Shown here piece by piece: positions 42,323 to 53,594 of a stretch of DNA of 64,000 bases. The first letter of the stretch is position 1. Every line of letters starts with the position of its first letter. Made by a program: the position numbers and the translations under genes. This stretch comes from Promethearchaeota archaeon (GTDB lineage Archaea > Asgardarchaeota > Lokiarchaeia > Sigyniarchaeales > SOKP01), in the NCBI GenBank assembly GCA_030599585.1, contig JAUVNS010000004.1:64001-128000 (forward strand), in the 5' to 3' direction. The notes below the pieces were generated by a model. The model worked only from the letters and a program-made list of their open reading frames with translations. It was not told the origin of the DNA and searched no databases.

Positions 42323-42976
42323 TCATATGTATAGCGTATTTGTATCTTTTTGATATTTTATTTTGCCTAACTGGAGTAGATGTAAAAGGTATACGAATTG
42401 TTCATAAATCTCTATTTGATCCAACTCGTTATCGAACACATCTTCAAAAAAGCAAGGAAGTTTTTTTTTAATTTTGTCATAAAAAGCGCTAATCTTTTCC
42501 GTATATTTATACTTTGGAACTTCTAGTAAAAATTGATCGTTAGTTTCCTCTCTAGTCAAGTGTTCAATTGTAAAATGCGTTATCCTTTCTTTGATATAAC
42601 GATTAGAAGCGTAATCTAGAAATTTCAAAGAAATTGGTTCGAAATGAAATGTTTCTCTCCAACACCCGCGAAATATGTCGGATATTTGGTCCTCGTTGGG
42701 GTGAGTTTTCAAAAAATCTTCAAACTTCTTTTCTATATCTAACGAACTTAGCAAATTCTTTAACTCTTCAAATTTATCGTTGAGCAATTCAACTGCACTT
42801 TTAAAGCTTTGCGAATAATTTTCGATATTGTATATGCTAATTGAGTTCTTAATTTCGCTAAAAATAGGATTAAGTTGTAACTCTAATAAATTAATCTTAC
42901 CTGAGAGGACATCATCTTTTATAAGCGCTATCCTTTTATTGATTTTTTCTGATAAATCTAATTCCTCCACTTTCAC
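42323..42976 (-). CDS. Kleisin (ScpA/Nse4-like)
   Basis: GKINLLELQL..SAVELLNDK N-terminal motif; FEDVF..FVYLLHLLQLGKI C-terminal WH; overlaps the smc stop (GTGA). Confidence 0.72.
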   Translation of the reverse strand: MKVEELDLSEKINKRIALIKDDVLSGKINLLELQLNPIFSEIKNSISIYNIENYSQSFKSAVELLNDKFEELKNLLSSLDIEKKFEDFLKTHPNEDQISDIFRGCWRETFHFEPISLKFLDYASNRYIKERITHFTIEHLTREETNDQFLLEVPKYKYTEKISAFYDKIKKKLPCFFEDVFDNELDQIEIYEQFVYLLHLLQLGKIKYQKDTNTLYI

Positions 42977-45900
42977 CCTTCCTTAACGATTTTAGGATTA
43001 AAAATAGTCGACACTTCATTTTTTCCTACTCTAGCAACTCCAATTAACTTGTCTGCAAGAAGATAAAGAGCGTTTGATGATTTTGGTAAGAATAGTAGCA
43101 TTTGAATAGAATTATTCTCAAGAGTTGATTTTATCATGGTATACGAAGCTTCCGAATTCCTATCATCCAAAAACATCCCAGCTTCGTCAAGCATTACAAT
43201 AGGTGAGCTTTTAATCTCTAAAAGGGATAAAATTAACCCAATAGATATCATGGAAATCTGACCTCCGCTTAAAGCCTTGCATGATTTTAACTGATCCTTA
43301 GAGATTGCAGCTTTAATCTCTATTCCTAAATCTTCAAATTTCCCTATTAACTCAAGCGTACAATAAGCTTTAATATCCGTAGACTTAAATTTATCATTGA
43401 TTCTCGAATTTAGTTTTTTTAAAACTAGATGGAATTTGTCGAAATAAGTGTCTTCCAATTTATTTTCAGTTTTAATCGCCGATTTTATATCTATTTCTAT
43501 CTCTCTCTGATTTTTTGTAATTTCTTTTAAACCCTTTAGAATTTGTTCTTTTTCGACCAAGATACTATCATCTATATCGAAATATTTCAAGAGCTCTTTG
43601 TCGATGTTCAATAAATCTCGATTTATCTCTTGAATAGGTCGAAGTGATATTACTTCTTCTTCAATTAACGGACCAATTTCAGATATGACTCGCTTTAAGT
43701 CATCTTCTTTGACCCCTAATTCGCGTGAAATTGAAGTCTGCTTAAAAATCTCTTGTTCTAACCTTAAATTTAGTTGAATATAAGAAGAATCAATTTCTTT
43801 CTTTTCATTCAGGGTTATTTTTTTCTTTTCTTTTAACTCTGAGATGACATTGTTGACATTTAATAATTCTTCTTCAAGGTTTTCCAAGGCTGTATAAATT
43901 CTAAAAGCTTTTTTATCTGACTTTTCGAACGCGTCTTTTTTTGAATTATAATTATCTTCAGATGACTTTAAATCGCTGCTTTGGTAATTAATTTCCTCAC
44001 TGATCTCTTTTAGAGATTCGAGGTTTTCATTAAATTTTTCTTCCCATTTTTTTAATTCGTTGTTGTAATTATTTAGTTCACCGGGAATTTCCTTTATTCT
44101 TTTGTTCCATTCAAAGAATTCGGGGTCTTTCTGAGACTCTAAATCGTTGAGTTTTTGGGACACTTCGTTTAGGTTGTCATCAAACTCTTTATTACGCTGT
44201 TCTAAAGAGTAAATCAAGTTATAATGATGATTCTTCTTAGTAGTTAACCTTTCTTTTTGTTTAAAATTGAATAGAAGATCGGTAAAAGATTCTTTTTTTC
44301 TGAGGATTTCGTTTTGGTTCTTATCAAGTTTAGTTAGGTCTACTTTTAATTCTAAAATTTTGCTGTTTAACGATTTGATTTCTTTCTCCAAGAAATTTGA
44401 TTGCTCTTTCTGCGTTCCTGCGCTCAACAAGCCTTTTAACCTTTTTACATGAGGACTTTCGTAGACATATTTATAAGATATAATTTGTTTCCCTTGTAAT
44501 GTCACACATTTTCCCTTAAAACTACTGGTTCTGTAAATTTCTTTAGCGGACTGGTAGTCATCAACTACAATGCAATTTTTGATTATCGAATAAATAACCT
44601 TTTGGACATCGGAGTCTCCATTAATAATTTCAACCAGTTCGACTAAATACCCGATTACACCATTCGCAGCGATTTTTGGAAATGCTGTAATGTTGCTTTT
44701 TTTTGGAATATAAATGTTACAATATGCGTTATATTTCTTTTTTAGCCGCTCCATTAAATTTAATGTATCCCAATCACTCGTAATAAAGCTATTTAGTAAT
44801 CTTTCTCCAAAAACAGATTCAATTGCGTAGCTTAACTTATCATCATATTTTAGGTATTCAATTATAGGGCCCTTAACTCGATCTGATAATTCTCGTTTAC
44901 TAATTTCTTCTTTGAGAATGTTAATATTAGGCGAGAGTACAATTTTTCGTTCTCTTAACGCAGTTTGTATTCGTTTAAATTCTCTTATTTTTTTAGACTT
45001 ATCATATTCTATTCTTTCAATTTCAGCTTCAAATTTTAGTAGCTCTACTGTCACTTTTTTAAGATTTATGTCTAACTGTTTTAGTAGATCCTCTGAAGGG
45101 TTTTCTAAAAACCATTTGTTTTTAGATAACTTGTGGTCGATATCCTTCAAACTCTGAAAAATGTCGTTAATATCTTTTTTAATATCTTCAACATTATTTT
45201 CGTTTTCTTGAATGGTTCTTAGAATAACTTCCCTCTGCTGCGATAATTTGTTGTACTTCTCTAAAAAAGCTTCATTCTCTTTAATTTTCCTTATTAAATC
45301 ACTCTGTTCCTTGATAATACCATCGATTTCGTTTTTAATAAAATCTTTTTTTTTTTTAATTACATCGATTTTCTCGTCAACATTCTTTTTCTGATTTCGA
45401 ATATTCTCTAAGTTTTTCTTTTTTTCTGCTATGGTTTCTGCTAGTTTATCCAAGTCACTCATAGCATTAATTTTCTCTTTTTGCCAAGCACTAATTTCAT
45501 TTATAAATTCCTGTTTCTTATACCCTAATACACCTAACTTTTCTGAAAAAATGCTAATCTTGTTATCAATATCAAGAATAGTTTTCTCTTTTTCATTGAT
45601 TTTATTTTGATATTCATCAACTTCTTTTCTGTTAATGTCAATTTGGTTTTCGATTTCATTAAGCTTGACTTCTAATTCTTCAATTTCTTTTTGTAGTTCT
45701 CCTTTATTTGCCCAAAGTAACTCATCTGTGTATTTTTTTCTAATATCTAATAATTTATTTTTCTCGGTCAATCGTTTTAATTGTGGTGTCAACAGATCCA
45801 AGTTAATATTTAGAGCATTTTTTCTTGAAATTAACGATTGAAATTCAGCGTTTAATGCCAATACGCCTTTTTTTTGTTGGAGGATTTCATCTCTAAGTCC

Positions 45901-46464
45901 TTTTAATCCAATTCCCTCTTCTAGAAATGAGCAAAGTTCTATTGGTTTTAAATTTTTTATAGCATCAATTTTTCCTTGGCTTACGAACGCAAACTGATTA
46001 TCAGGATTGATATCTAGCTTGGAGACTAGTTTTTGAACTTCAGTTACGTGAGCTTTCTTGAATTCTTTGTCCTTATCAAGTTGTAATTCAAAAAAAGGGG
46101 ATTTCCCTTTTACTACAGTTCTTCGAATTTTAATAATCTCGGTGTGATGTTGAATGTGAAGCTCTACCATAGCGTGTGCTTGGTCGTTTCTTATAAAATC
46201 AGACCATTTTTTATATCTTTCATCTCTTTCGTTACTCCCTAAAGCAAATTTAATAGCTTGAAAAATTGAAGTCTTACCGCTCCAATTCGGACCAATTATT
46301 AAAACAAAACGAGGAATACCTTTATTTTTTTCAGTTGAAAAATTTACTTCATCCCTTTGGAAAGATAAAAAATTCTCTAATATAACCTTGCGTATATAGG
46401 TACCAGTCTCGATTAGTGATTTATCTTGGGTGTCAGTAGTGTTTTTCTTACTGGAAGAAGCCGT
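42973..46464 (-). CDS. smc: SMC ATPase, Smc5/6-like (1163 aa, probable ACG start)
   Basis: The frame extends 98 codons past the track start and contains YIRKVILENFLSF and Walker A GPNWSGKT. Q-loop INPDNQFAFVSQGKI; hinge VKGPIIEYL..AIESVFG..LNSFI; LSGGQ; LDEAGMFLD. Confidence 0.9.
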   Translation of the reverse strand, partial: TASSSKKNTTDTQDKSLIETGTYIRKVILENFLSFQRDEVNFSTEKNKGIPRFVLIIGPNWSGKTSIFQAIKFALGSNERDERYKKWSDFIRNDQAHAMVELHIQHHTEIIKIRRTVVKGKSPFFELQLDKDKEFKKAHVTEVQKLVSKLDINPDNQFAFVSQGKIDAIKNLKPIELCSFLEEGIGLKGLRDEILQQKKGVLALNAEFQSLISRKNALNINLDLLTPQLKRLTEKNKLLDIRKKYTDELLWANKGELQKEIEELEVKLNEIENQIDINRKEVDEYQNKINEKEKTILDIDNKISIFSEKLGVLGYKKQEFINEISAWQKEKINAMSDLDKLAETIAEKKKNLENIRNQKKNVDEKIDVIKKKKDFIKNEIDGIIKEQSDLIRKIKENEAFLEKYNKLSQQREVILRTIQENENNVEDIKKDINDIFQSLKDIDHKLSKNKWFLENPSEDLLKQLDINLKKVTVELLKFEAEIERIEYDKSKKIREFKRIQTALRERKIVLSPNINILKEEISKRELSDRVKGPIIEYLKYDDKLSYAIESVFGERLLNSFITSDWDTLNLMERLKKKYNAYCNIYIPKKSNITAFPKIAANGVIGYLVELVEIINGDSDVQKVIYSIIKNCIVVDDYQSAKEIYRTSSFKGKCVTLQGKQIISYKYVYESPHVKRLKGLLSAGTQKEQSNFLEKEIKSLNSKILELKVDLTKLDKNQNEILRKKESFTDLLFNFKQKERLTTKKNHHYNLIYSLEQRNKEFDDNLNEVSQKLNDLESQKDPEFFEWNKRIKEIPGELNNYNNELKKWEEKFNENLESLKEISEEINYQSSDLKSSEDNYNSKKDAFEKSDKKAFRIYTALENLEEELLNVNNVISELKEKKKITLNEKKEIDSSYIQLNLRLEQEIFKQTSISRELGVKEDDLKRVISEIGPLIEEEVISLRPIQEINRDLLNIDKELLKYFDIDDSILVEKEQILKGLKEITKNQREIEIDIKSAIKTENKLEDTYFDKFHLVLKKLNSRINDKFKSTDIKAYCTLELIGKFEDLGIEIKAAISKDQLKSCKALSGGQISMISIGLILSLLEIKSSPIVMLDEAGMFLDDRNSEASYTMIKSTLENNSIQMLLFLPKSSNALYLLADKLIGVARVGKNEVSTIFNPKIVKEG

Positions 46465-46484: not shown

Positions 46485-47768
46485 TTAATACTTTCCAAAC
46501 GCTCTCTTTAAATTATCGATACGTTTCTTTGCTTTTTCTAAATTGATTTGAGCCATCTTTGGACTATCGTTTAGAATAAACGCATATTTTGCCATTATTT
46601 TTCTCTCAATTTCTTCTAAATGCTCGTTCTTGTTTAATTTATCAATTATCAGCACAAGCTCGCTGTAATTTTTTGATACTGCGTTTTCGTACAACTGATT
46701 TAACATAAAATCTGTGAATCTTTCCTCTTTAATTTCATTCCTTAAATTTTGAGCGTAAACATTTCTATTTTCTGCATTTCTTCCATACATAGAATTTTTG
46801 TTAGAAAATTCATCGCTTTTGAAGAACTCTGAATCTTTTATATTTTGTTTCGTTTCTGGAGTAGTAGGAATATACTCTCCTGATTCAATCAAATTAATCA
46901 AGCCATCGGTAATTTCATTACTCGACTCATTTAATTCAGAATTGAGAAAATGTTTAAATATCCCTATTCTTAATAGTTGAATTAAGTCTTTTACCTCCCA
47001 AGTTTCTGTGTAATCTACTAATGTCTTGATATCAAACACAATTTTCGGATTTTTTTCAGAAAAAGCTCTAAATATCGTTTCTCTTTCCGCCTTATCTAAA
47101 ATTGGAACTTTGATAAAAAAATCAAACACATCAAAAATCAATTGCGAACTTTCTTTGATTTCCTTCATTGTATTATTTATCCAGATTAATATCAATCCAT
47201 CTTTTACAAAATTTGCCCTATTCTTATAGGATACCATAAAAAGTTCTAACAAATTTTTCCCATTTAAGTTAAGGCTGGAAAATTTCTGTTGGTCTAAAAC
47301 TAATAATCCTTTTATTTTAGATTGTTCAGGATCGTGTTCATTTGATTGAGGTTTTTCGTTGTTTTTTGTTTCATTTTCTCTATTCTTCACCGTTCGTTTT
47401 ATTACATCCTCTAAAATGTCAATTAGATTAGAAATAAAGACGTCAGGAGCCTTGACGATTTCCTCACGATTCAATTCAAAGAAATTTAAATAGTAATTTT
47501 TAGATATTAATTTTAAATAATCTACGATATCAGTTCCAGGATTTACTTTTATCAATATCGCACCTTTAGGGTGAATAAACTTATCATAACTCTGAACAAC
47601 TGATTCCTCGTCATTTGTTAAAACAATTTTCAGATAATTTATAATATCGTTATACTTATCTCGATAAAAAATCTCCTCTCTATCAATTTCAATTTCATTT
47701 GGTGTAATTACCCGATAGTACTTAGAGAATTCTATATCGTTATCTATATCTTCCATAGAGAAGTTCAT
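46485..47768 (-). CDS. Degenerate (probably ATPase-dead) AAA+ fold protein
   Basis: PKGAILIKVNPGTDIV (cf. PKGILLYGPPGTGKT), FDFFIKVPILDKAERETIF, DIKTLVDYTETWEVKDL (cf. lid motif LAxxTEGFSGADI). Confidence 0.65.
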   Translation of the reverse strand: MNFSMEDIDNDIEFSKYYRVITPNEIEIDREEIFYRDKYNDIINYLKIVLTNDEESVVQSYDKFIHPKGAILIKVNPGTDIVDYLKLISKNYYLNFFELNREEIVKAPDVFISNLIDILEDVIKRTVKNRENETKNNEKPQSNEHDPEQSKIKGLLVLDQQKFSSLNLNGKNLLELFMVSYKNRANFVKDGLILIWINNTMKEIKESSQLIFDVFDFFIKVPILDKAERETIFRAFSEKNPKIVFDIKTLVDYTETWEVKDLIQLLRIGIFKHFLNSELNESSNEITDGLINLIESGEYIPTTPETKQNIKDSEFFKSDEFSNKNSMYGRNAENRNVYAQNLRNEIKEERFTDFMLNQLYENAVSKNYSELVLIIDKLNKNEHLEEIERKIMAKYAFILNDSPKMAQINLEKAKKRIDNLKRAFGKY

Positions 47769-48431: not shown

Positions 48432-48824
48432 TCATTCTAAAGCTAAATTTTGATTAAAAGTTGTTAAGTTATTCTTCAATTCTTCTTTAAATAGGTGGTA
48501 GAAGGTGAATTTCTGCTTTTTATATCCTTGAATTAACCCCACAGCAACTAACTTTCTTAAATGATGAGATATTGTTGATTGTGATTTATTCAATATCGTT
48601 TCTAACTCACAAACGCACCTATCTTGCTTTTTCAAGGCATTAATAATGATTAGTCGCTCTTTTGATGCAATTGCAGATGTAAATCTTTCAATAGCGTCTA
48701 AATTCTTATTCTCTTCCAACATTTTGCCCAATTTTAGTAACTTATCGAAATCAGGGTTTGAATCTGAACAATCTTTACAGTCACATAACATCTTTTTAAT
48801 TTCTTGAGCTCTTTTTTGTTTCAT
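48432..48824 (-). CDS. arsR: ArsR/SmtB-family repressor with As(III)-type alpha3 site
   Basis: RLIII..L, CVCELE, SQSTISHHLRKL..GLI; extra N-terminal CDCKDC. Confidence 0.92.
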   Translation of the reverse strand: MKQKRAQEIKKMLCDCKDCSDSNPDFDKLLKLGKMLEENKNLDAIERFTSAIASKERLIIINALKKQDRCVCELETILNKSQSTISHHLRKLVAVGLIQGYKKQKFTFYHLFKEELKNNLTTFNQNLALE

Positions 48825-49037: not shown

Positions 49038-50159
49038 TTGATGCTTATGGTTGAAGATGGTATTGAAAGTGAAGCAATAAATAATTTAGATAAATCAGAA
49101 GAAGCAAAACAAAAATCAAGAAAGATTAATTATTTCGAAAAGCTTCTTCCGATTTGGGTGGTACTATGTATCATCATTGGTATACTTCTCTCCCAATTTA
49201 TACCCGAATTAAGTCAAGCAATAAATTCTTTGCAAATTGGAGGTATTTCTATACCAATTGGAATTTGTTTGTTTTTAATGATGTACCCTGCGATGTTAAA
49301 TCTACAAGCATCAGAATTAAAAAAACTACGCAAAAACCCAAAACCTATAGTATTAACATTAATTTCTAATTGGCTCATTGCTCCTTTTGTGGGTTTGGCG
49401 ATGATTAATATATTTCTACCTGGTACAACCGAAGATATACAACAATTAAAAGTTGCGATAATTTTACTCTCAAGTTCGCCTTGTACAGCTATGGTGTTAG
49501 TGTGGGGATGGATGGCAAAAGGTAATCAAGAACAAAATGTAGTTAATACAAGCTTAAATACGATTACTATAATCTTTTTGTACGTAGGAATGGTTTCTTT
49601 ATTAACTAGCATTCAAAATATTCTCACGCCTGGGATTGTTGTTGATCCATGGTTGTTGTTAATCTCTTTAGTATTCTTCATTGGTATTCCGTTGTTATTA
49701 GGAATTGTAAGCAAGAGATTAATTATCACTTCGAAAGGATTATCGTGGTTTAATGATAGCTATAAACCATTTGTAGGAAAAATTTCAATTGTTGCTTTAT
49801 TGACAACTTTAGTGGTTTTGTTTTCCCTAAATGGCGATGTTCTTATAAATAATCCTGATTTGCTGCTACTAATCTCAATTCCACTCTTAGTAGGTTTTGT
49901 AATAGTGGTTGCTTACAACGTTTTTATTACTAAGATTTTTAAAATGAAGTATAAAGAAGCGATTATAACAATAATTATCGGCTCATCTAGTCACTTTGAA
50001 ATTGCTATCGCAACAGCCGTCGCAATGTATGGCGTTGGGTCCATAGCGGCTTTAGGAACTACAATGGGTTTATTTTGGGAAGTACCTGTTATGCTAGCAA
50101 TGGTATATCTTGGAAAATTCCTTGGGAAACGAGGATTTTGGAAATCTAATTCAAATTAA
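49038..50159 (+). CDS. acr3: Acr3-family arsenite efflux transporter
   Basis: LFLMMYPAM, NWLIAPF, PCTAMVLVW, SSHFEIAIA, EVPVML. Confidence 0.93.
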   Translation: MMLMVEDGIESEAINNLDKSEEAKQKSRKINYFEKLLPIWVVLCIIIGILLSQFIPELSQAINSLQIGGISIPIGICLFLMMYPAMLNLQASELKKLRKNPKPIVLTLISNWLIAPFVGLAMINIFLPGTTEDIQQLKVAIILLSSSPCTAMVLVWGWMAKGNQEQNVVNTSLNTITIIFLYVGMVSLLTSIQNILTPGIVVDPWLLLISLVFFIGIPLLLGIVSKRLIITSKGLSWFNDSYKPFVGKISIVALLTTLVVLFSLNGDVLINNPDLLLLISIPLLVGFVIVVAYNVFITKIFKMKYKEAIITIIIGSSSHFEIAIATAVAMYGVGSIAALGTTMGLFWEVPVMLAMVYLGKFLGKRGFWKSNSN

Positions 50160-50196
50160 CAAAAACATATTAAAAAACTAAATAGGATTGATAATA

Positions 50197-51864
50197 ATGG
50201 CAGTAGTGTATATGCGTAAACTCGAACAAGAACCAGATAGCTACGATTCTAAATTCACAGCACTTACAAAGGGAGTAAATTTAAGCGTTAGAGAATGGAT
50301 ACTTAATAAAACTGGTAATTCTCAATCAATTCTGGAGGTTGGATGTGGGACTGGAAGCCTCGCCTCTAAAATGGCGTTAAAAGGAAATGATGTTACTGCG
50401 ATAGATATAAATTTTCAAATGATAAATCACGCAATGCAGAATTTTCCTCCAGATTTAAAGGAAGGAACGCTCTTATACCAAACTGGATCATTTTCCAACA
50501 TGCCTGTAGAAGAAAGGTCTCAAGATTTAGTCATTAGTACGTTTATGCTTTCAGAACTTCGACCTTTTGAACAACAAATCTTCCTTAGAAATGTTTGGAA
50601 AGTATTAAAACCAAATGGAAGATTATTAATCGCAGCAGAATTTATTCCAGATGGTTTTTGGAAGCTAATCTTTAAAATAAAAAGATGGAGATATAAAAAG
50701 AAACTTAGGCGTCTTAAATTAAGGAGCACTTTTCTGCTAAAATGGTTCTTTAGATATATCGAACCAATTGGATTCAAAATCAAAGCAAAAGAAGACTGGA
50801 AACACGGAACAATTCAAGCTCTCGAACTGATAAAACATGACGATATAGAAATTAATGAACCAGGATATTATCAACCTAGCCCAAAACGATTCAAAGGGAT
50901 AATATCGCAGCTAAGAATATATCGTTGCATTTACACAGGCCAAATTGATCTCGTTCCAATCGATCCTGGTATTTACAAATCTGGTAATCCTACTGAATCT
51001 TCTCCTATAATAGTGACAGCTAATTATGAATTCACCTACATCAAAGTAATGAGAGATCTTAAAGGTATTGATGCATGGGTATTATGTGTTGATTCTAACG
51101 GAATTAATGTGTGGTGTGCTGCGAGAGGAAATGATTTTGGAAATAATCAACTAATCGAGGCTGTTGAAGCTACTGGTATTGAAAGATTAACTAATAAAAA
51201 AACATTAATTCTCCCACAATTATCTGCAGGAGGAGTAGCCACTCCAGAATTGCAGAAAAAATCTAATGATTTTTCTTTTAGAGTTGTTTATGGACCTGTT
51301 TGGTCTAAAGATTTACCCGAATATCTTGAAAAACGCCCTGCTCGAAAACCCGATAGAATGAAGCTTGCTAAATTCACTCTAAAACATCGATTTCGTGGTT
51401 TTATCACGCACACAACATTTCTATTAAGAAAGATTTTCATGTTACCTCTCATAAGTTTATTCGTTGTGTTTCTTATCCTTAACTCTCTTAATATAACGGC
51501 TAAATTATGGTGGGTTGGTGAATTATTACTCTGGATAGTTACAGCAAATTTCATCATAACTTTTACATATCCGATTGCAAATTTCACTCGTCGGTTTATT
51601 ATTAAGGGAATTTTCTTTGGGACTTTGAATGTTTTTATTTTGGGAATGTTCTCTTATTTATTTCATAATTCGATATTTTTCACACTTATGAACATTAGTT
51701 TTTTCTTTTGGATTTCATTTTTTTCAACAATGTCGTTAAGTGGGTATACAATGGCTACTAGCCCTAGTGAAATACAAGAAGAGTATCCCATTTTTAGTAT
51801 TTTAAATAAAGTTTTATTAACCATAAGTTTGATTTCATTAGTGATTGGAATCGTTTTTCTCTAA
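50197..51864 (+). CDS. Fusion: class I SAM methyltransferase + HgcA-like corrinoid domain + C-terminal TM bundle
   Basis: N-terminal ILEVGCGTG..IDIN..VLKPNGRL. Then PGIY..GNP..SPIIVTANYEFT..AWVLCVDSNGINVWCAARG..LILPQLSAGGV..VVYGPV..DLPEYL, followed by about 5 hydrophobic helices. Confidence 0.88.
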   Translation: MAVVYMRKLEQEPDSYDSKFTALTKGVNLSVREWILNKTGNSQSILEVGCGTGSLASKMALKGNDVTAIDINFQMINHAMQNFPPDLKEGTLLYQTGSFSNMPVEERSQDLVISTFMLSELRPFEQQIFLRNVWKVLKPNGRLLIAAEFIPDGFWKLIFKIKRWRYKKKLRRLKLRSTFLLKWFFRYIEPIGFKIKAKEDWKHGTIQALELIKHDDIEINEPGYYQPSPKRFKGIISQLRIYRCIYTGQIDLVPIDPGIYKSGNPTESSPIIVTANYEFTYIKVMRDLKGIDAWVLCVDSNGINVWCAARGNDFGNNQLIEAVEATGIERLTNKKTLILPQLSAGGVATPELQKKSNDFSFRVVYGPVWSKDLPEYLEKRPARKPDRMKLAKFTLKHRFRGFITHTTFLLRKIFMLPLISLFVVFLILNSLNITAKLWWVGELLLWIVTANFIITFTYPIANFTRRFIIKGIFFGTLNVFILGMFSYLFHNSIFFTLMNISFFFWISFFSTMSLSGYTMATSPSEIQEEYPIFSILNKVLLTISLISLVIGIVFL

Positions 51865-51916: not shown

Positions 51917-52279
51917 ATGACTGAAGCAGAATTTAAAGCAAGTTTAAGTAAATTATCTATAAAGGATTTTAAAATATTTATAAATGAAAGCTTATGCAAC
52001 AAGTGTGGTTTATGTGCAGAAGTGTGTCCTTTTGGGCTTCCACAACAAACAGATTCCGGAAAATACGATATTAAAAATCATGAACTATGTACTGAATGTA
52101 GTGCTTGTAAGAGGAATTGCCCCGTAAATGCGATCATTATGAACGAAAAGAAGGGGTGCGGTTGTTTATGGAACGCTAGAGCAAACGCAAAAAATTCCAA
52201 ATCAGGAAATAAAGACATAAATAATTGTGGTTGTGGTCCAGAAAACGAAAGTGAAACAACTTCAAGTTGTTGCGGTTAA
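51917..52279 (+). CDS. HgcB-like 2[4Fe-4S] ferredoxin with Cys-rich tail
   Basis: CNKCGLCAEVCP, CTECSACKRNCP (cf. HgcB C(M/I)ECGAC), GCGC, terminal CGCG..SSCCG. Confidence 0.85.
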   Translation: MTEAEFKASLSKLSIKDFKIFINESLCNKCGLCAEVCPFGLPQQTDSGKYDIKNHELCTECSACKRNCPVNAIIMNEKKGCGCLWNARANAKNSKSGNKDINNCGCGPENESETTSSCCG

Positions 52280-52833: not shown

Positions 52834-53172
52834 ATTAAAAAAATTAAATTAACAATTTTTGGACCTGAAAAAGAGCTCGCAAACGGAATTGAGTACGAAG
52901 TATCTATCGAGGAAGAAGGATCGATAATTGAAGCATTGGCTGCTATAGATAGACAGCTCCTTAACAACCCCAAGCTTTCACCGTTTCCATTGTATAAAGG
53001 ACTAATTAAGAGCTATCTCCAATTAATCTGGGACCCCCAAAAAAACGCTATTTACGAAGACTGTGCAAGTAATGCCTATGGGCCGAACAAAGAGTTTATG
53101 CCTCTTCTGGATGATGTAAACTTCAACCTTTATCAGAACAGCGATATAACTCTTATAGTCCACGCCGATTGA
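52834..53172 (+). CDS. Beta-grasp (MoaD/ThiS-like) protein lacking GG, ATT start
   Basis: AGGTGA + 6 nt + ATT, directly after an in-frame TAG. Translation KKIKLTIFGPEKELANGIEYEVSIEEEGSIIEAL..NLYQNSDITLIVHAD, then TGA TGA. Confidence 0.65.
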   Translation: MKKIKLTIFGPEKELANGIEYEVSIEEEGSIIEALAAIDRQLLNNPKLSPFPLYKGLIKSYLQLIWDPQKNAIYEDCASNAYGPNKEFMPLLDDVNFNLYQNSDITLIVHAD

Positions 53173-53594
53173 TGAGCTGATAACATGAGAGAACGCTTAG
53201 ATTACGGTTCATTTAAAAGAGTAATCATGAAAAAATATGGAAAAGACCACGAAACTTTTGCTCAATACTTCATAATAAAATTAAAAAATCAAAAGCAGGG
53301 ATGATATCTTTCAATAAACTTTAGTGGAAGATTGACAACAGGATTGCCTCCTATTTGCTTTGAATTACTATTTTTTTTTAATTACATGAATAGAAAGAAT
53401 AACTCTAAATTTATACATGATTGAATTTTTAAATGATCCTTTAGGTTTCAAATACGCTATTTTCTCAAATCTCACTCAAAACATTTAAAAATTTCTAAGG
53501 AACATTAATCCCCAATTCTCTCAATTCATGAACTCAGTCGATGTGAGAAAAAAATAAAAAAAAAATTTATTTGAAAATTTATTTATTCAGGTTT

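Follow-up and report, generated by a model that had tools for sequence, protein, structure and literature searches.

Fusion of a SAM methyltransferase to an HgcA-type corrinoid protein

The gene described here encodes a 555-amino-acid (aa) protein and lies in a 64,000-nucleotide window, the whole stretch of DNA that was analyzed, from a contig of an Asgard (Loki-type) archaeon; all coordinates are positions in this window. The protein joins an S-adenosylmethionine (SAM) methyltransferase domain to a domain for corrinoid binding and a transmembrane (TM) domain of the type found in HgcA. Its gene sits in a co-directional row between genes for an ACR3-family arsenite efflux permease and an HgcB-like ferredoxin, followed by a gene for a Cys-rich thioredoxin-fold protein, and a divergent ArsR/SmtB-family regulator lies on the other side of the permease gene (Table 1). 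The gaps within the row, in gene order, are only 37, 52, and 52 bp. As stated in the first-pass annotation of this DNA, the fusion is encoded by a single open reading frame (ORF) uninterrupted by any stop. The ORF list extends it to a TTG at 50188; the ATG at 50197 appears the likelier start because orthologs start with MAVVYM at the same point.

Table 1. Features of the fusion gene and its operon, with positions in the 64,000-nucleotide window
Feature	Coordinates	Strand	Evidence and remarks
ArsR/SmtB-family regulator	48432..48824	-	Divergent; Pfam HTH_5, 60.1; NCBIfam HTH_metalloreg, 65.7 (cutoff, 55)
ACR3-family arsenite efflux permease, first operon gene	49041..50159	+	TIGR00832, 274.8 bits, E 1e-81; Pfam SBF, 130
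Fusion gene: CpaM-like SAM methyltransferase, HgcA-type corrinoid-binding domain, and 5-helix TM domain	50197..51864	+	555 aa
Class I (UbiE-like) SAM methyltransferase domain, residues 1-215, divergent CpaM by sequence	50197..50841	+	
SAM-binding motif I, LEVGCGTG, residues 46-53	50332..50355	+	G49, G51, and G53 invariant in alignment A1
Interdomain linker, about residues 216-234	50842..50898	+	No secondary structure in AF2
HgcA-type corrinoid-binding domain	50899..51378	+	Pfam CdhD, PDB sequence matches, Foldseek
Cap-helix motif NVWCAARG, Cys307	51106..51129	+	Sequence
TM domain, five helices: 395-430, 438-463, 467-490, 493-515, 523-554	51379..51861	+	AF2
HgcB-like 2x[4Fe-4S] ferredoxin	51917..52279	+	NF040864, 47 bits (cutoff, 99); Pfam Fer4
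Cys-rich thioredoxin-fold protein, 152 aa	52332..52790	+	Sequence, alignment A3, AF2, Foldseek

The three-part organization proposed in the first-pass annotation is borne out by domain searches and by structure prediction. Pfam places Methyltransf_11 at residues 46 to 145 (62.4 bits; gathering threshold, 21.2) and CdhD at residues 235 to 344 (60.7 bits). An AlphaFold2 (AF2) model built from 55 homologs (predicted local distance difference test [pLDDT], 90.4; predicted template modeling score, 0.87) shows a Rossmann-type domain that reaches approximately residue 213, a linker without structure, a corrinoid domain of the alpha/beta type that contains a short helix at residues 305 to 310, and five long helices between residues 395 and 554. 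The pLDDT dips in the block of residues 211 to 220, where the linker starts, and a hydropathy scan of orthologs gives four to five TM peaks. The best Foldseek match of the model is an HgcAB model (9a0b_A; E, 3e-13), followed by the class I methyltransferases 3sm3, 3l8d, 8ys9, and 4obw. Solved structures related by sequence to the middle domain (residues 241 to 379) are limited to large subunits from corrinoid iron-sulfur protein (CFeSP; 2h9a_A and 4c1n_A). The N-terminal domain thus has the above-threshold score, the GxGxG motif, and the Rossmann fold by which a class I SAM methyltransferase is recognized.

Conservation follows the same anatomy. Across the 55 fused proteins of alignment A1, G49, G51, G53, and D70 of the methyltransferase domain are invariant, as are M6, L9, E10, P13, and Y16 near the N terminus and N304, V305, W306, C307, and A308 in the cap helix. 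The bases at 51106 to 51129 read aatgtgtggtgtgctgcgagagga, which translates to N V W C A A R G; the motif was therefore reported correctly at the outset, with its Cys kept and RG standing in for GK. Cys307 is predicted to be the lower axial ligand of the cobalt.

The N-terminal domain and the CpaM family

By sequence, the N-terminal domain is a divergent CpaM ("corrinoid protein-associated methyltransferase"), a family that NCBI classes as a hypothetical equivalog (NF043040). CpaM is its best family in NCBIfam (141.5 bits, residues 3 to 209 on profile positions 2 to 212 of 216), and the runner-up methyltransferase family scores 50 bits. The score falls below the CpaM cutoff of 180 bits; stand-alone and triple-fused CpaMs reach 242 to 282 bits, and the CpaM part of the bacterial fusions tested reaches 212 to 277 bits. 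The match is full length, the N-terminal motif M..YM.LE..P..YD is present, and the HgcA-type corrinoid protein with which a CpaM is encoded is here part of the same chain. PGAP labels some 548-aa Hodarchaeales fusions "CpaM."

A resemblance of the N terminus to stand-alone methyltransferases beside HgcA-like corrinoid proteins, suggested in the first-pass annotation, is real: stand-alone CpaMs next to HgcAB-like genes start MSYVYMKALE..P.RYD, and the HgcAB-like neighbors of stand-alone CpaMs score 371 to 398 bits, above the cutoff of their own family. Two things had been overlooked there, namely that this pairing is already catalogued (NF043040/NF043039) and that the gene lies in an arsR-acr3 context, which is the strongest clue to the substrate. 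A full-text literature search found no paper mentioning a CpaM-HgcA pairing or fusion. Identity with ArsM (NF008823) was considered and rejected, as it had been from the start, since the domain scores 33.4 bits against a cutoff of 263 and the single Cys across residues 1 to 215 is C50, within the GCGTG of the SAM motif.

Distribution and domain architectures

More than 120 near-full-length homologs exist, and all 120 of the best matches listed, drawn from ENA, JGI, NCBI, and Logan assemblies, are 541 to 578 aa long and carry both Pfam domains. Where their hosts are named, these are Lokiarchaeota/Promethearchaeota and Hermod-, Hod-, Heimdall-, and Odinarchaeota; named cultured hosts were sought among the cluster members, and none were found. 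In a 201-genome sample of the phylum, 28 of the 39 genomes from the host's own family have a full-length match (56 to 91% identity), and other families give matches at 31 to 37% identity.

Across the loci sampled, which include those from a scan of genome contigs (600 stretches, of which 80 loci were kept), the methyltransferase (MT), HgcA-type, and HgcB-type parts are joined in at least four ways; the locus counts given here are samples, not censuses. An MT-HgcA fusion with a separate HgcB defines class A, which consists of the host locus and 19 sister loci (546 to 560 aa), and also class B, found in other Asgard families (524 to 584 aa, or 543 to 584 aa at the loci) at 27 to 36% identity to the query (31 to 36% at the loci). 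Class C is a triple MT-HgcA-HgcB fusion (587 to 652 aa), class D is a CpaM beside an HgcAB-like fusion, and in a fully split class CpaM, the HgcA-like protein, and HgcB are all separate. Fusions of the class B type also occur in Bacteria (Anaerolineae and "Ca. Abyssubacteria"), and split pairs of CpaM and an HgcAB-like protein occur in one delta-proteobacterial and one Deferribacteres metagenome-assembled genome. Eight of the triple fusions (L057 to L063 and L078) score above both the CpaM and the HgcAB-like cutoffs and would be convenient single-chain constructs for assays or structure determination.

The split CpaM and HgcA-like pairs in other genomes raise the question of whether the gene in the window is two neighboring genes merged by a sequencing or assembly error, and the first-pass annotation had named an assembly join or frameshift between the domains as the finding that would undo the fusion. 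Sequencing runs of three other studies, on marine sediment and cold seep, yielded contigs that bridge the linker (50842-50902) without an indel, and no indels anywhere within 50197-51864 were reported among the independent-run contigs; these Logan contigs are short, and no single piece covers the whole operon. The linker segment PGYY.P..K.FKG is kept within class A, and the same protein of about 550 aa recurs in hundreds of independent assemblies. An artifact of this kind has next to no probability. No RNA run was listed as carrying the gene. One further run (X20) contains only pieces 88 to 95% similar to acr3 and the 5' half of the fusion gene; it is labelled metatranscriptomic and flagged "probably DNA," and it was not used as evidence of transcription.

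The presence of CpaM follows the cap-helix motif. Among 70 loci with an HgcA-like gene lacking GK, the order MT, HgcA, HgcB is constant, and CpaM is fused to or directly upstream of the HgcA-like gene at all of the 69 that could be assessed; the one remaining locus (L082) is truncated where its contig stops. No CpaM was found in any of 40 true-HgcA loci, which have GK (39 from the genome-contig scan, 33 of them with at least 0.9 kb of upstream sequence, and 1 from an Asgard genome). The NVWCA core is invariant everywhere; after it, CpaM-linked lineages show RG, GG, CG, AG, TG, or EA, and GK in none. These counts amount to a simple sequence rule: an HgcA-like protein without GK goes with CpaM, and one with GK goes without.

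On the tree, the presence or absence of CpaM requires one change, and the fused, split, or absent state requires at least three. Because this state changes at least three times, the architectures provide Rosetta-stone evidence that CpaM and the HgcA-type protein are a functional pair. The first-pass annotation had gone further, holding that the fusion directly identifies a dedicated methyl-donor enzyme for this HgcA-like clade. The pairing (69/69 against 0/40) favors a dedicated donor; that it is one is inferred from the pairing and not directly identified by the fusion.

Placement of the corrinoid and membrane domains

By the criteria of those families, the fusion clade is neither true HgcA nor the HgcAB-like fusion. 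The protein scores 184.5 bits on the HgcAB-like profile NF043039 (cutoff, 285) and aligns only to position 270 of 350, the part that precedes the ferredoxin; class C and D proteins score 348 to 398 bits on this profile. The two CxxCxxCxxxC motifs of a fused ferredoxin are absent from the chain, the ferredoxin being a separate gene. On the HgcA profile NF040863 it scores 178.4 bits (cutoff, 275), aligned over positions 30 to 320 of 325 with the TM helices included; a true Asgard HgcA scores 436 bits. The cap-helix Cys and the five-helix TM domain expected of HgcA are present (C307, invariant; helices at residues 395 to 554), and NVWCAARG lies outside the six-motif list used at high stringency (Capo et al. 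2022).

In a search of 1.84 billion proteins, the closest sequences after other fusions were true HgcAs with NVWCAAGKGT (130 to 140 bits). Two maximum-likelihood trees, both quick IQ-TREE searches with support from the Shimodaira-Hasegawa-like approximate likelihood ratio test (SH-aLRT) only, recovered groups for true HgcA (100), for HgcAB-like proteins together with classes C and D (99), and for class A (100), with classes A and B outside the true-HgcA and HgcAB-like clades. The fusion is a new architectural and phylogenetic variant of the catalogued system of CpaM and an HgcA-type corrinoid protein. Two bacterial MT-HgcA fusions, P0147 ("Ca. Abyssubacteria") and P0159 (a JGI contig), have CpaM parts above the cutoff (231 and 212 bits) and HgcA parts to which the true-HgcA model (210 and 219 bits, both below 275) gives a higher score than the HgcAB-like one does; they are the nearest neighbors of true HgcA in the unrooted tree, with weak support.

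These data bear on the possibility that the locus encodes an HgcA/HgcB pair with an extra domain, the physiological or actual activity of which is the methylation of Hg(II). True HgcAs are its nearest nonfusion relatives, the HgcA profile aligns over its whole length, the ferredoxin keeps a C-terminal Cys pair, the best structural match is the HgcAB model, and surveys list Asgard archaea as putative methylators. Set against this, the cap motif differs from all six of those found in confirmed methylators (Capo et al. 2022), both proteins fall below their cutoffs (HgcA, 178 versus 275; HgcB, 47 versus 99), and the clade stands apart from true HgcA (100% SH-aLRT). Pfam and NCBIfam scans, moreover, found no mer genes nearby and did find arsenic genes. 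We regard mercury methylation as an unlikely role for this protein.

The operon and its arsenic context

The ArsR-family regulator has a C-V-C motif (DRCVCELE) in its DNA-binding region and a CDCKDC cluster at its N terminus. The permease aligns with TIGR00832 over its full length, slightly below the cutoff of 282.8 bits, and carries the PCTAMV Cys and HFEIAIA Glu motifs, which we take to be functional in ACR3. In the ferredoxin, GCGCLW follows the second cluster and the chain ends in SSCCG. These motifs, which class A and B partners keep and classes C and D lack, match the Cys73 and terminal Cys94/95 features that HgcB requires (Cooper 2020).

In the 152-aa protein, the N-terminal tail is variable and contains three S-C-C pairs; the core, of 88 aa, bears an invariant C-x-C at the place of the thioredoxin CxxC. 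Its AF2 model (pLDDT, 93.9) retrieved thioredoxins only in Foldseek (template modeling scores of 0.6 to 0.7; E from 2.6e-3), it has no family match in Pfam or NCBIfam, and its gene lies downstream of the ferredoxin gene in 10 of the 20 class A loci. Identity as ArsD or ArsE was considered and dropped, given the blank family searches and the generic thioredoxin matches (E ≥ 2.6e-3), and the claim is limited to a thioredoxin fold with CxC. Just past the operon, the ORF at 52834-53304 (+) continues through a pair of consecutive TGA codons when these are translated as Sec (…IVHAD-U-U-ADN…); its homologs in nine class A loci end at the same point (…HAD or …DVGC).

The same arrangement of arsR and acr3, with acr3 directly upstream of the fusion gene, is found at 11 of the 20 class A loci, and 2 more have arsR alone; by a looser count of clusters, ArsR-family neighbors occur at 15 of the 20. 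Arsenic context in lineages beyond class A constitutes more independent evidence than this synteny. In a separate Promethearchaeum lineage (L110), arsR-acr3 lies about 2.3 kb upstream of the fusion gene, and in three of seven class B loci of one family (f7) an ArsR-like gene is directly upstream and co-directional. The 39 true-hgcAB loci, which come from several phyla of Bacteria and Archaea, include 7 that encode ACR3 within 6 kb (26 to 33% identical to the host ACR3) and about 11 with an upstream ArsR-like gene. Arsenic links to hgcAB have also been published (McDaniel 2020, PMC7438021; Gionfriddo preprint). One Asgard genome (G025) has a true hgcA (436 bits) and hgcB (108 bits) without CpaM (L102:732-3716), and 0.7 kb upstream of this pair, on the same strand, is a gene for an ArsM-like methyltransferase (157 bits on NF008823, below the cutoff).

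Proposed mechanism and its alternatives

As a whole, these observations are best explained by a self-charging corrinoid methyltransferase of the HgcA superfamily, an explanation to which we assign a probability of about 55%. The anatomy is that described above, and from it we infer the chemistry. The HgcB-like ferredoxin would bring the corrinoid of the HgcA-type domain to the Co(I) state, with the corrinoid held by the cap helix and Cys307 as its axial ligand. The fused CpaM-like domain would bind SAM and methylate Co(I), yielding CH3-Co(III) and S-adenosylhomocysteine. The flexible linker could allow the two domains to come together and part again, in the manner of other corrinoid methyl relays. 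CFeSP-type domains swing from one partner to another. The methyl group would then pass, at the membrane face, to a soft, thiol-bound metal(loid), which the ferredoxin might present by its thiols in GCGC and in the C-terminal CC. Because the ArsR-controlled operon encodes an ACR3 pump and a Cys-rich thioredoxin-fold protein, arsenite or a chemically related species, for example Sb(III) or Hg(II), would be the most likely physiological substrate.

The two halves of this scheme differ in strength. We consider the relay from SAM to the corrinoid by the fused domain probable on the strength of its family assignment and genomic pairing, and arsenic as the native substrate a tentative proposal, suggested by the genes nearby, with somewhat less than an even chance of being right. 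SAM chemistry is established for the HgcA superfamily, because SAM is the methyl source of purified true HgcAB, by way of Cys-ligated methyl-Co(III); the SAM-binding site was not identified in that study (Zheng et al. 2024, PMC11588087). In about 70 neighborhoods, no TIM (triosephosphate isomerase)-barrel methyltransferase or other conserved partner was found.

The fused methyltransferase might instead serve repair alone, remethylating accidentally oxidized Co(II) with the help of the ferredoxin as the AdoMet domain of MetH does, with another molecule, such as a methyl-pterin supplied by an unlinked enzyme, as the routine donor. The reactivation of MetH by SAM and a low-potential electron donor is established, the ferredoxin is always beside the methyltransferase, and methyl-pterin chemistry is at the disposal of the host, since its genome encodes the Wood-Ljungdahl corrinoid proteins CdhD and CdhE. 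However, none of the roughly 70 neighborhoods conserves a second methyltransferase of the TIM-barrel MeTr, MtrH, or MtaA type, the competent donor for true HgcAB is SAM and not methyl-tetrahydrofolate, and the fold of the MetH activation domain is unlike that of class I methyltransferases. A role confined to repair seems quite improbable.

Several observations weigh against a self-charging enzyme acting on arsenic. In true HgcAB, Co(I) reacts with SAM without any methyltransferase domain, so a dedicated one is not chemically required. A canonical ArsM is encoded elsewhere in the host genome (G000:C21:122553-123404, locus L084; 345 bits versus a cutoff of 263), and arsenite methylation therefore does not need the fusion system. 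Loss of hgcAB in Pseudodesulfovibrio mercurii ND132 left As(III) sensitivity unchanged, with reports limited to thioarsenicals. The neighborhoods of classes C and D have no arsenic context, and acr3 is absent from 9 of the 20 class A loci, 5 of which carry a MarR regulator. Lastly, a gene for a 427-aa protein and an SMC-like gene are as syntenic as arsR-acr3 in class A, so the synteny of arsR-acr3 there is largely inherited and not independent.

Two of these observations have further detail. A sub-lineage of class A that includes L032, L034, L035, and L036 is without ArsR and ACR3 and has the MarR-family regulator upstream on the same strand (five loci). The 427-aa ORF (46485-47768), which has no Pfam match, and the 1,065-aa SMC-like ORF (42973-46170), both on the minus strand, are syntenic with the ars/hgc cluster in 9 to 11 sister genomes.

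The same lack of arsenic genes around classes C and D would suit an acceptor that is not a metal at all, either an organic or membrane-bound molecule or the substrate of a corrinoid dehalogenase, with the arsenic genes merely syntenic. CpaM has a UbiE-like fold, that of a family acting on membrane quinones; a 2026 preprint describes halomethane dechlorination by HgcAB; and the flanking block is syntenic throughout the archaeal family. Such a reading must contend with the operon-like spacing and the divergent CVC-type ArsR, with the recurrence of ACR3, ArsR, and ArsM-like neighbors at unrelated true-hgcAB loci, and with the vicinal thiols packed into the ferredoxin tail and the next gene product. 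A SAM methyltransferase would also be superfluous for a dehalogenase. We judge a nonmetal acceptor improbable.

Significance

Both the native function of the HgcA superfamily and the source of its methyl group are questions in mercury biogeochemistry, and SAM was shown to be the source only in 2024. The Asgard clade combines the HgcA/HgcB body plan with a recognizable SAM domain and so offers a tractable construct for the study of SAM-to-cobalt transfer. Its ars operon setting, in turn, gives a concrete substrate hypothesis, arsenic or antimony.

A broader claim, that the fusion marks a cobalamin-dependent route of metalloid methylation (SAM to B12 to As(III)), is at this point doubtful. Extracts of anaerobes methylate arsenic with methylcobalamin, an old observation for which such a route, if it exists, would provide the enzyme. 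It would also mean that the native business of the whole HgcA superfamily is thiophilic metalloids and not mercury.

Since CpaM is carried by every lineage sampled other than true HgcA, the ancestor of the superfamily may already have had a dedicated SAM methyltransferase, and true HgcA may have lost it with SAM kept as the donor. Such a history would account for the "unexpected" SAM dependence reported in 2024. Rooting of the tree on 11 C-terminal domains of CdhE/AcsC leaves the superfamily with a polytomy at its base; thus, we do not claim CpaM as ancestral. The fusion genes also pass moderate-stringency hgcA screens, and sediment Asgard archaea, which are abundant, can therefore enter survey counts of mercury methylators on weak grounds.

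Comparison with known systems

The corrinoid-binding domain is homologous to that of CFeSP (AcsC/CdhE; 2h9a, 4c1n, and 9fzy), and the two systems share the logic of a Co(I)/CH3-Co(III) relay with a dedicated methyltransferase partner. The donor enzyme of CFeSP, MeTr, is a TIM barrel that uses methyl-tetrahydrofolate, and CFeSP itself has no Cys ligand, membrane domain, or class I SAM domain. With ArsM, the fusion shares a class I SAM methyltransferase located in ars operons. ArsM, in contrast, uses three or four conserved cysteines to bind As(III), which it methylates directly, whereas the fused domain has one Cys. MetH is likewise a corrinoid enzyme with a fused SAM module that methylates cobalt with the aid of a low-potential electron donor, but the fold of its SAM domain is unrelated, and MetH is soluble, is His ligated, and uses SAM for repair only.

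HgcA and HgcB of P. mercurii ND132 share with the system described here the Cys cap helix and the set of five TM helices. In both, the ferredoxin is separate, has a Cys73-like motif, and ends in Cys-Cys, and ArsR-family regulators and ars genes recur nearby. The methyl source of HgcA/HgcB is SAM (Zheng 2024). The cap motif is NVWCAARG here and N(V/I)WC(A/S)(A/G/S)GK in HgcA, and an N-terminal SAM methyltransferase is present only here (0/40 true-HgcA loci).

One closest system is the pair of CpaM and an HgcAB-like protein (NF043040/NF043039), the "fused HgcAB" of Podar 2015 and Gilmour 2018, as found, for example, in Pyrococcus furiosus. Both combine the methyltransferase N terminus M..YM.LE..P..YD with a corrinoid and TM protein of the HgcA type and with a 2x[4Fe-4S] module, in the order MT-HgcA-HgcB, and both have an invariant NVWCA from which GK is missing. 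They differ in what is joined to the corrinoid protein, which here is the methyltransferase and not the ferredoxin. The fusion also falls below both cutoffs and outside the clade with 99% SH-aLRT support, and it lies in an ars operon. Finally, it retains the fifth TM helix and a separate ferredoxin with the terminal Cys pair.

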